Source of the DNA: Escherichia coli
GTDB taxonomy: Bacteria > Pseudomonadota > Gammaproteobacteria > Enterobacterales > Enterobacteriaceae
Strand: one strand, 5' to 3'
DNA length: 30,913 bases
NCBI RefSeq assembly: GCF_003334355.1
Contig: NZ_QOWP01000039.1
Part shown: one piece after another, positions 1-1,723 of the stretch
Numbering within the stretch: the stretch's first letter is position 1
Layout: every line of letters starts with the position of its first letter
The notes under the pieces: model-generated
The model's database searches: none
What the model saw: only the letters and a program-made list of their open reading frames with translations
What the model was told of the DNA's origin: nothing
Program-made: the position numbers and the translations under genes

Positions 1-2
1 TG

Positions 3-116
3 AATCTGAGGCAGCACCTGGCACGGCTGGGACGGAAGTCGCTGTCGTTCTCAAAATCGGTGGAGCTGCATGACAAAGTCATCGGGCATTATCTGAACAT
101 AAAACACTATCAATAA
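3..116 (+). CDS. 3' end of an unidentified CDS running in from the left edge (open frame, 37 codons, TAA at 114-116)
   Basis: Frame is open from the window edge to TAA at 114-116 (translation ...[37 protein letters not shown]). No start is visible and I do not recognise the protein; it could be a gene tail or a chance open frame. Confidence 0.25.
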
Positions 117-670
117 GTTGGAGTCATTACCCTATTTGCGAATCATTATCCAGTTTATCAAATTCAACTATCTTTGCACGATGTGTTTTATCAACCTTGC
201 CATGGTGTTGATGACTGTTAACTTTATCTGAATGCTTATCTTGATGGCTTGAAGAGATGTTTCTAATCTGATTGTCAATTGCTTTCATAAATAACCTGTG
301 ATATTTTTGAATTGTTTGTAACAAAATAAATGATACTTGTCTGAAAAACAGATTTACGACGATATAAAATAATAATACTTATATGTTCGCTGATTTTAAG
401 CACCGAGACTATCCGGTCTTTTACCAAATAATGAAGAATAATCCCTCCCTGGAAGATAATTGTAAAAAACAACAGCATAAGAATTAATCTTAGGATAAAT
501 TTTTATTTATCATGGCCTTTTGAACGCTGAAAAGTAGCGCTCTGCAAAGTAAACCCCGCTATAGTTATGCTATGCATTTGTCTTTAATGATATCTCGTCA
601 TTATATTAACAGGATGAAATTATCATTAATGCATATTTCAATATTAGCAGGGATACCTGAGGAGTTTAAA

Positions 671-1723
671 GTGAACATATATATCGGGTGGCTTTTCAAA
701 TTAATCCCTTTGATTATGGGCTTAATTTGTATCGCGTTAGGTGGCTTTGTGCTGGAAAGTTCAGGGCAAAGCGAGTATTTCGTCGCGGGTCATGTGCTGA
801 TTTCTCTGGCGGCCATATGCCTGGCATTATTCACTACCGCATTTATTATCATTTCGCAGCTCACGCGCGGCGTTAATACGTTTTACAATACATTGTTCCC
901 CATTATTGGCTATGCGGGGTCAATTATCACCATGATATGGGGTTGGGCACTGTTAGCAGGCAATGATGTGATGGCAGACGAGTTTGTCGCCGGCCATGTT
1001 ATTTTCGGCGTTGGTATGATTGCCGCCTGTGTATCGACGGTGGCAGCGTCATCCGGTCACTTTCTGCTCATTCCCAAAAATGCAGCGGGGAGCAAGAGCG
1101 ACGGAACACCGGTACAGGCTTATTCTTCATTAATCGGTAACTGCCTCATTGCCGTTCCCGTTTTACTCACCCTGCTCGGTTTCATTTGGTCTATTACGCT
1201 GTTACGTAGTGCTGACATAACTCCGCATTATGTCGCGGGTCACGTATTGCTTGGGTTAACCGCAATCTGTGCCTGTCTAATTGGCCTTGTTGCCACAATT
1301 GTCCATCAAACACGTAATACGTTTTCAACTAAAGAACACTGGCTGTGGTGTTATTGGGTTATTTTTCTCGGCTCAATCACGGTACTGCAGGGGATATACG
1401 TCTTAGTCAGTTCCGATGCAAGCGCCCGACTGGCTCCCGGCATTATTCTTATTTGCCTCGGAATGATCTGTTACAGCATATTCTCAAAAGTCTGGCTACT
1501 GGCACTGGTATGGAGACGTACCTGTTCGTTAGCCAACAGAATACCGATGATTCCCGTCTTCACCTGCCTGTTTTGCCTTTTCCTGGCATCGTTTCTTGCG
1601 GAAATGGCGCAGACCGACATGGGATATTTTATTCCTTCGCGAGTTCTGGTCGGTTTGGGAGCGGTATGCTTTACGTTGTTCTCAATCGTTTCAATATTAG
1701 AAGCGGGTTCTGCTAAAAAATAA
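671..1723 (+). CDS. yhiM: Inner membrane protein YhiM (350 aa, multi-pass, acid-resistance associated)
   Basis: The 572..1723 ORF matches my recollection of YhiM. I place the start at GTG 671, preceded by GGAG at 661-664, which gives 350 aa; the longer ATG-started N-terminal extension is AT-rich and atypical. The protein is strongly hydrophobic with a repeated FVAGHV motif. Confidence 0.8.
   Translation: MNIYIGWLFKLIPLIMGLICIALGGFVLESSGQSEYFVAGHVLISLAAICLALFTTAFIIISQLTRGVNTFYNTLFPIIGYAGSIITMIWGWALLAGNDVMADEFVAGHVIFGVGMIAACVSTVAASSGHFLLIPKNAAGSKSDGTPVQAYSSLIGNCLIAVPVLLTLLGFIWSITLLRSADITPHYVAGHVLLGLTAICACLIGLVATIVHQTRNTFSTKEHWLWCYWVIFLGSITVLQGIYVLVSSDASARLAPGIILICLGMICYSIFSKVWLLALVWRRTCSLANRIPMIPVFTCLFCLFLASFLAEMAQTDMGYFIPSRVLVGLGAVCFTLFSIVSILEAGSAKK

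Follow-up and report, generated by a model that had tools for sequence, protein, structure and literature searches.

Three reading frames upstream of yhiM at the edge of an Escherichia coli contig: probable IS1 end, IS1-cut yhiL and chance ORF

What do the three short reading frames represent that lie upstream of yhiM, at the left edge of a 30,913 nt stretch of Escherichia coli DNA (contig NZ_QOWP01000039.1; this whole stretch is referred to as the window)? A plus-strand frame is open from the edge to position 116. On the minus strand, ORF 127..324 (65 aa, TTG start) and ORF 275..478 (67 aa, ATG start) occupy different frames and share 50 nt. These coordinates, as given in the initial annotation, were confirmed by translation and by the ORF list. 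The description of the surroundings as AT-rich DNA upstream of yhiM is also accurate, with a G+C content of 33.8% in 132-288 and 30.1% in 289-670, compared to 47.4% for the window, and with the GTG start codon of yhiM at 671. The product of 127..324 is indeed hydrophilic and rich in His, Lys, and Asp, which together account for 34% of its residues. The initial annotation had left all three products without identification; each can now be given a name (C-terminus of the IS1 transposase, 5' end of yhiL, and probable chance ORF). We are highly confident of the explanation as a whole, namely that the region consists of an IS1 end, a yhiL gene cut by IS1, and a chance ORF in the yhiL-yhiM spacer. 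The features are:

1..131, plus strand: last 131 bp of IS1 (base-for-base match to annotated IS1A 3' ends and to the full IS1 of CP095454.1)
3..116, plus strand: C-terminus of the IS1 transposase InsB / InsAB', 37 codons and TAA (translation falls within the full copy's InsB frame)
109..131, plus strand: right terminal inverted repeat of IS1, 23 bp, ATCAATAAGTTGGAGTCATTACC (read from the sequence; outer IS1 end in L002, L003, and L005)
127..288, minus strand: chimeric 53-codon ORF (MKAID...DNDSQIG) with its TAA at 127-129 within the IS1 repeat (sequence and ORF list; 14 public contigs)
132..140, no strand: right-hand copy of a 9-bp target-site duplication, CTATTTGCG (flanks both IS1 ends in CP095454.1)
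132..288, minus strand: 5' fragment of yhiL, codons 1-52 and one base (ATG at 286-288; identity to K-12; annotated start in relatives)
275..478, minus strand: 67-aa ORF located in the yhiL-yhiM spacer, probably arisen by chance and not a gene (ATG not conserved; frame broken in 4/6 lineages; chance length)
289..324, minus strand: spurious lengthening of the ORF up to an in-frame TTG, within the yhiL 5' untranslated/promoter region (unannotated; frame broken in 2/6 strains)
289..670, no strand: divergent yhiL/yhiM promoter region, 30% G+C (yhiM transcription start A649; Shine-Dalgarno GAGGAG at 659-664; GTG at 671)

In strains KMi029 and Res13-Lact-ER02-39, copies that bear the annotation "IS1-like element IS1A family transposase" have a 3' end with 100% sequence identity to bases 1-131. 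Translation of 3-119 on the plus strand gives 37 open codons, followed by TAA at 114-116, and position 116 is equivalent to the end of the annotated IS1A transposase CDS in both strains. The full 768-bp IS1 copy from CP095454.1 includes these 37 residues in its InsB frame, and its product is assigned to Pfam families PF03811, PF12759, and PF03400 (Zn_ribbon_InsA, HTH_Tnp_IS1, DDE_Tnp_IS1). The 37-aa InsB fragment alone, being too short, has no match in NCBIfam. Positions 109-131 are the reverse complement of the IS1 right-end repeat GGTAATGACTCCAACTTATTGAT and are the same as the annotated IS1A ends. Because 109-131 is the right terminal inverted repeat, the boundary of IS1 is at base 131. When compared to known IS1 of the IS1A/IS1B type from Enterobacteriaceae, the terminal 131 bp, the 23-bp right repeat, and the InsB C-terminus are the same, and the element itself shows no difference; just its last 131 bp fall within the window. 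The plus-strand frame is thus the tail of the IS1 transposase, and it is real by homology and not by length. It looks truncated because the window begins inside IS1, a repeated element of the kind in which short-read contigs typically break. A related draft contig (L007), which has 1 mismatch in 6,288 nt, terminates 8 bases further left than the window, and both edges are as expected if assembly from short reads is interrupted inside a repeated IS.

To the right of the IS1 boundary, bases 132-600 match K-12 and many other E. coli genomes with 100% sequence identity, and are contiguous there with a gene annotated as "YhiJ/YhiL family protein". The annotated start of yhiL corresponds to window position 288 in K-12 (AML001, MG1655), in strain WI2, and in six diverged strains. 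It lies 382 nt from the yhiM GTG, upstream of it and in divergent orientation, so that the frame is identified as yhiL by sequence identity as well as by synteny, and not by its length. The coding part from 288 down to 132 translates to MKAIDNQIRNISSSHQDKHSDKVNSHQHHGKVDKTHRAKIVEFDKLDNDSQI, which is the same as the N-terminus of K-12 YhiL, and codons 1-52 form an open frame in all seven sequences (the window and the six diverged lineages). At the 131|132 junction, the yhiL frame gains a Gly codon and TAA (127-129), which are wholly or partly supplied by IS1. An exact-protein look-up retrieved a gene for the resulting 53-aa chimeric product on 14 public contigs, one of which is the complete chromosome CP095454.1. 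The same look-up has no gene on record for the 65-aa product with the TTG start. A start at TTG 324 is annotated in none of the genomes examined, and in two of the six diverged strains, a 1-bp deletion breaks the frame of the 12-codon extension to this TTG.

Intact YhiL from strain WI2 has 535 residues, with DUF6860 at 40-164 and DUF4049 at 209-532. The stump ends at YhiL residue 52 and carries neither domain completely: only about 13 residues of DUF6860 are kept, and none of DUF4049. On the basis of its sequence, the stump is best described as a gene remnant and not as a functional member of the YhiJ/YhiL family, and it is probably without function. The closest well-described counterpart is yhiL of K-12 (b4660; YhiJ/YhiL family with DUF6860 and DUF4049). 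The first 157 nt of that gene are 100% identical to window 132-288, and its promoter region and the divergent yhiM are the same. The genes differ in their fate: in K-12, a frameshift near codon 410 has inactivated yhiL, the window copy is cut at codon 53 by IS1, and yhiL from WI2 is intact. It is also intact in O157:H7 and others, and it has been frameshifted independently in K-12 and in EF7-18-58/S1-IND-01-A. Between lineages, the 5' part of yhiL (132-288) shows 83-90% nucleotide identity compared to 96-98% for the yhiM-proximal promoter (571-670), and the first 52 codons show many amino acid changes which cluster in codons 3-10. A search for literature on DUF4049/YhiJ gave nothing usable. 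The translation of K-12 yhiL (L001 1551-3157, minus strand) contains GDHTGDR ... GNHE at residues of about 300-350. We assume that this resembles the signature of calcineurin-like metallophosphoesterases, in which case DUF4049 may be phosphoesterase-like.

For ORF 275..478, conservation was analyzed by aligning the region with that of six diverged E. coli lineages, which have 87-93% sequence identity over 132-600. Its ATG (CAT at 476-478 on the plus strand) is ATT in all six lineages. Its frame is destroyed in four of them, by a 1-bp insertion in O157:H7, by a nonsense change in OkiPb01679, and by a 2-bp insertion together with a 1-bp deletion in EF7-18-58 and S1-IND-01-A. Neither the start codon nor the frame is thus conserved as would be expected for a small protein gene. 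A complete ORF of at least 67 aa is found in 10% of dinucleotide-preserving shuffles of 132-670, and for this reason the length of the ORF alone is no evidence for a gene. NCBIfam gave no match for the four short translations including 275..478, fragments which are too short, and this ORF is annotated in none of the genomes inspected. Judged by these sequence comparisons, ORF 275..478 is most probably noise.

Two other readings of the minus-strand ORFs have to be weighed. ORF 275..478 could be a genuine small hydrophobic protein restricted to the K-12-like lineage. The frame begins with ATG and comprises 67 codons, its sequence is 100% conserved among many K-12-like genomes, and promoter-like hexamers occur nearby on the minus strand (466-438 and 399-372). 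However, promoter-like sites are not in excess in this region (5 found in 1-800, compared to 3.3 +/- 1.7 in shuffles), and the ORF overlaps the start and leader of yhiL. In view of this, and of the ATT codon and disrupted frames in other lineages, we consider such a gene very improbable. Alternatively, both overlapping ORFs might be halves of one gene that was broken by a frameshift, as was considered in the initial annotation: they lie on one strand, in different frames, and K-12 yhiL is in fact a frameshifted pseudogene. The frameshift of K-12 is far downstream, though, and outside of the window. All annotated genomes have the yhiL start at window position 288, which is inside the ORF overlap, and the gene runs leftwards from there. 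Codons 1-52 of yhiL are open in all six diverged lineages, whereas 275-478 is upstream of this start, has no homolog, and is broken in 4/6 lineages. A single frameshifted protein is refuted by the yhiL start at 288 and by the lack of conservation of 275-478, and we find this reading hardly credible. What can be retained is that a pseudogene exists (yhiL); it was inactivated by IS1 rather than by a frameshift, and the two ORFs do not belong to one protein. When the fragments are aligned to other strains, only 132-288 belongs to a longer protein. Similarly, the suspicion of noise in an AT-rich promoter region holds for the non-conserved ORF 275..478 but not for 127..324, which contains the genuine 5' end of yhiL.

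The spacer itself is well characterized in K-12. Primer extension placed the transcription start of yhiM at an A located 22 nt upstream of GTG, and translation signals are arranged as GAGGAG-N6-GTG (PMC6604978). The window matches these signals with A649, GAGGAG at 659-664, and GTG at 671. The mechanically called ORF 572..1723 starts at ATG 572; it over-extends yhiM by 33 codons, into sequence that is upstream of the mRNA. K-12 has 78 "promoter islands", and the yhiL/yhiM spacer belongs to them. As a class, they are AT-rich, promoter-dense, H-NS-bound, mostly silent, and tied to horizontally acquired genes; a second island has been reported inside K-12 yhiL (PMC3661553). The window carries the same DNA (identical over 132-600), but with the difference that IS1 is found about 160 bp into the yhiL side of the island. 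Because the DNA is this promoter island, it is AT-rich and has many promoter-like and ORF-like chance signals. An Rfam search of 1-1200 (E <= 1) had no match, and a terminator scan of 1-800 found none.

The leftward extension and strain comparison that had been proposed in the initial annotation resolved the left edge as IS1 cutting yhiL. We searched 5,426 RefSeq complete E. coli genomes for the exact junction. Among the matches listed (30 of 39 with high coverage; 8 of 18), those with full coverage consist of two to three joined pieces, with IS1 at other yhiL positions. The exact junction was reached through the exact-protein look-up of the 53-aa product. The complete chromosome CP095454.1, which has an identical junction, carries a 768-bp IS1 with CTATTTGCG on both sides, a sequence that occurs once in intact yhiL. 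Beyond IS1, the remainder of yhiL is found, followed by yhiJ, yhiY, yhiI, and rbbA. The target duplication has 9 bp, ends with C and G, and is located in AT-rich DNA, which is the usual type of IS1 target. The case of CP095454.1 is thus a simple transposition in which 9 bp of the target were duplicated. Only the right end of such an arrangement is present in the window, to which CP095454.1 is a relative, with 24 differences in 6,288 compared positions. An intact yhiL without IS1 at this position is found in the genomes most similar to the window, namely WI2 and eight others (100.0% over 24,869 nt); the insertion is therefore recent relative to the WI2 lineage.

According to our explanation, IS1 has inserted in codon 53 of yhiL, which is an AT-rich and apparently dispensable gene divergent from yhiM. 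The first 157 nt of yhiL (from 288 to 132 on the minus strand) have stayed attached to their promoter. The yhiL frame runs into the IS1 repeat and stops one codon later, which leaves a 53-codon stump and inactivates yhiL. ORF 275-478 is most probably an open frame that arose by chance in the AT-rich, H-NS-bound yhiL/yhiM promoter region. In the window's own genome, the remaining parts of IS1 and yhiL probably follow on the left side. It could instead be that IS1 in this genome marks the end point of a deletion or rearrangement, with the remaining yhiL not on its other side: the window ends inside IS1, so that the left flank is out of view, and IS1 copies at a distance of 165-190 bp are joined to deletions into yhiJ (TKEC21-59, E41) or to ISEc1 (PEC422). 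Against this, the only complete chromosome with the exact junction shows a simple insertion with a 9-bp duplication, and the junction base and CTATTTGCG are the same in the window and in CP095454.1. We thus consider a rearrangement unlikely and favor a simple insertion.

The same site has been used by IS1 in both orientations. In four of the contigs with the 53-aa product (L006, L008, L011, and L012), it is the left end of IS1 that abuts CTATTTGCG; the orientation is opposite to that at 131|132 in L005, L007, L009, and L010. The 53-aa product is the same in both cases because either inverted repeat supplies the G-stop. L005 shares yhiN SNPs with L011/L012 despite the opposite IS1 orientation, which shows that orientation does not follow the local haplotype. 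Recombination between IS1 copies was ruled out by reasoning as the source of the opposite orientations, because an inversion keeps the pairing between flank and IS end. As recombination cannot swap the IS end at a flank, the copies with opposite orientation at 131|132 presumably represent independent insertions.

Among the loci examined from complete E. coli genomes (L002, L003, L019-L024), at least 8 distinct IS1 sites are found within about 620 bp. Their window-equivalent positions are -109, -62, -56, -33, 132, 161, 240, and 514, a range which covers the 5' third of yhiL and the yhiL-yhiM spacer. The site at -62, located 194 bp further into yhiL than 131|132, has also been used in both orientations (KMi029, 10-bp duplication; AH04, 9-bp duplication). 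In TKEC21-59 (L022) and E41 (L023), the other side of IS1 is joined to the 3' end of yhiJ, and in PEC422 (L024) to a truncated ISEc1. The deletion to the yhiJ 3' end corresponds to about 2.8 kb and comprises the 3' part of yhiL and most of yhiJ. These three cases are IS1-associated adjacent deletions or rearrangements.

IS1 was found in or near the yhiL 5' region in 39 genomes in one orientation and in 21 in the other, out of about 4,190 RefSeq complete genomes that have the locus. This is about 1.4% of genomes, compared to an expectation of about 0.2% per 800-bp interval (based on about 10 IS1 ends in the median genome), and is a rough excess which is uncorrected for clonality. IS1 inserts preferentially into AT-rich DNA and at certain hot spots. 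The local AT-rich DNA probably attracts IS1, and the target preference of IS1 together with the dispensability of yhiL suffices to explain the recurrence. A search for literature on IS1 hot spots gave nothing usable. It is rather doubtful that the yhiL 5' end and the spacer are a true IS1 hot spot beyond AT preference, selected via yhiM expression or via loss of yhiL. If they were, expression of the stress gene yhiM might be altered by read-out from IS1 or by interference with the silencing of the promoter island by H-NS; such selection via yhiM is conceivable but unsupported.

All components of the region are already known (IS1, yhiL, and the yhiL/yhiM promoter island), and the same allele occurs in public assemblies. 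The corrected annotation comprises the end of an IS1 and a yhiL pseudogene disrupted by IS1, with no further gene, and on its own is of low importance. In natural E. coli, yhiL and its promoter island have been struck repeatedly by IS1 and, independently, yhiL by frameshifts. These events fit with yhiL being a dispensable, H-NS-silenced, horizontally acquired, and decaying gene.

Two further observations concern the gene neighborhood. In KMi029 (L002 5079-5794) and in L008 (1-3907), a copper-resistance island (pcoE, pcoS, pcoR, and copC/copD-like genes) is located directly downstream of yhiM. In the window, the downstream neighbor of yhiM is yhiN, at the place that is occupied by the copper-resistance island in some of the strains with IS1 in yhiL. 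A passage of PMC8417528 describes transposition of Tn7/pco/sil into the chromosome and mentions yhiM, and a passage of PMC11005409 links YhiM to copper stress. At 17122-18345 (plus strand), between the ars genes and slp, the window has an uninterrupted ORF of 407 aa. In K-12 MG1655, yhiS is presumably split by IS5 at the ars-slp position; if so, the window strain carries the uninterrupted form.
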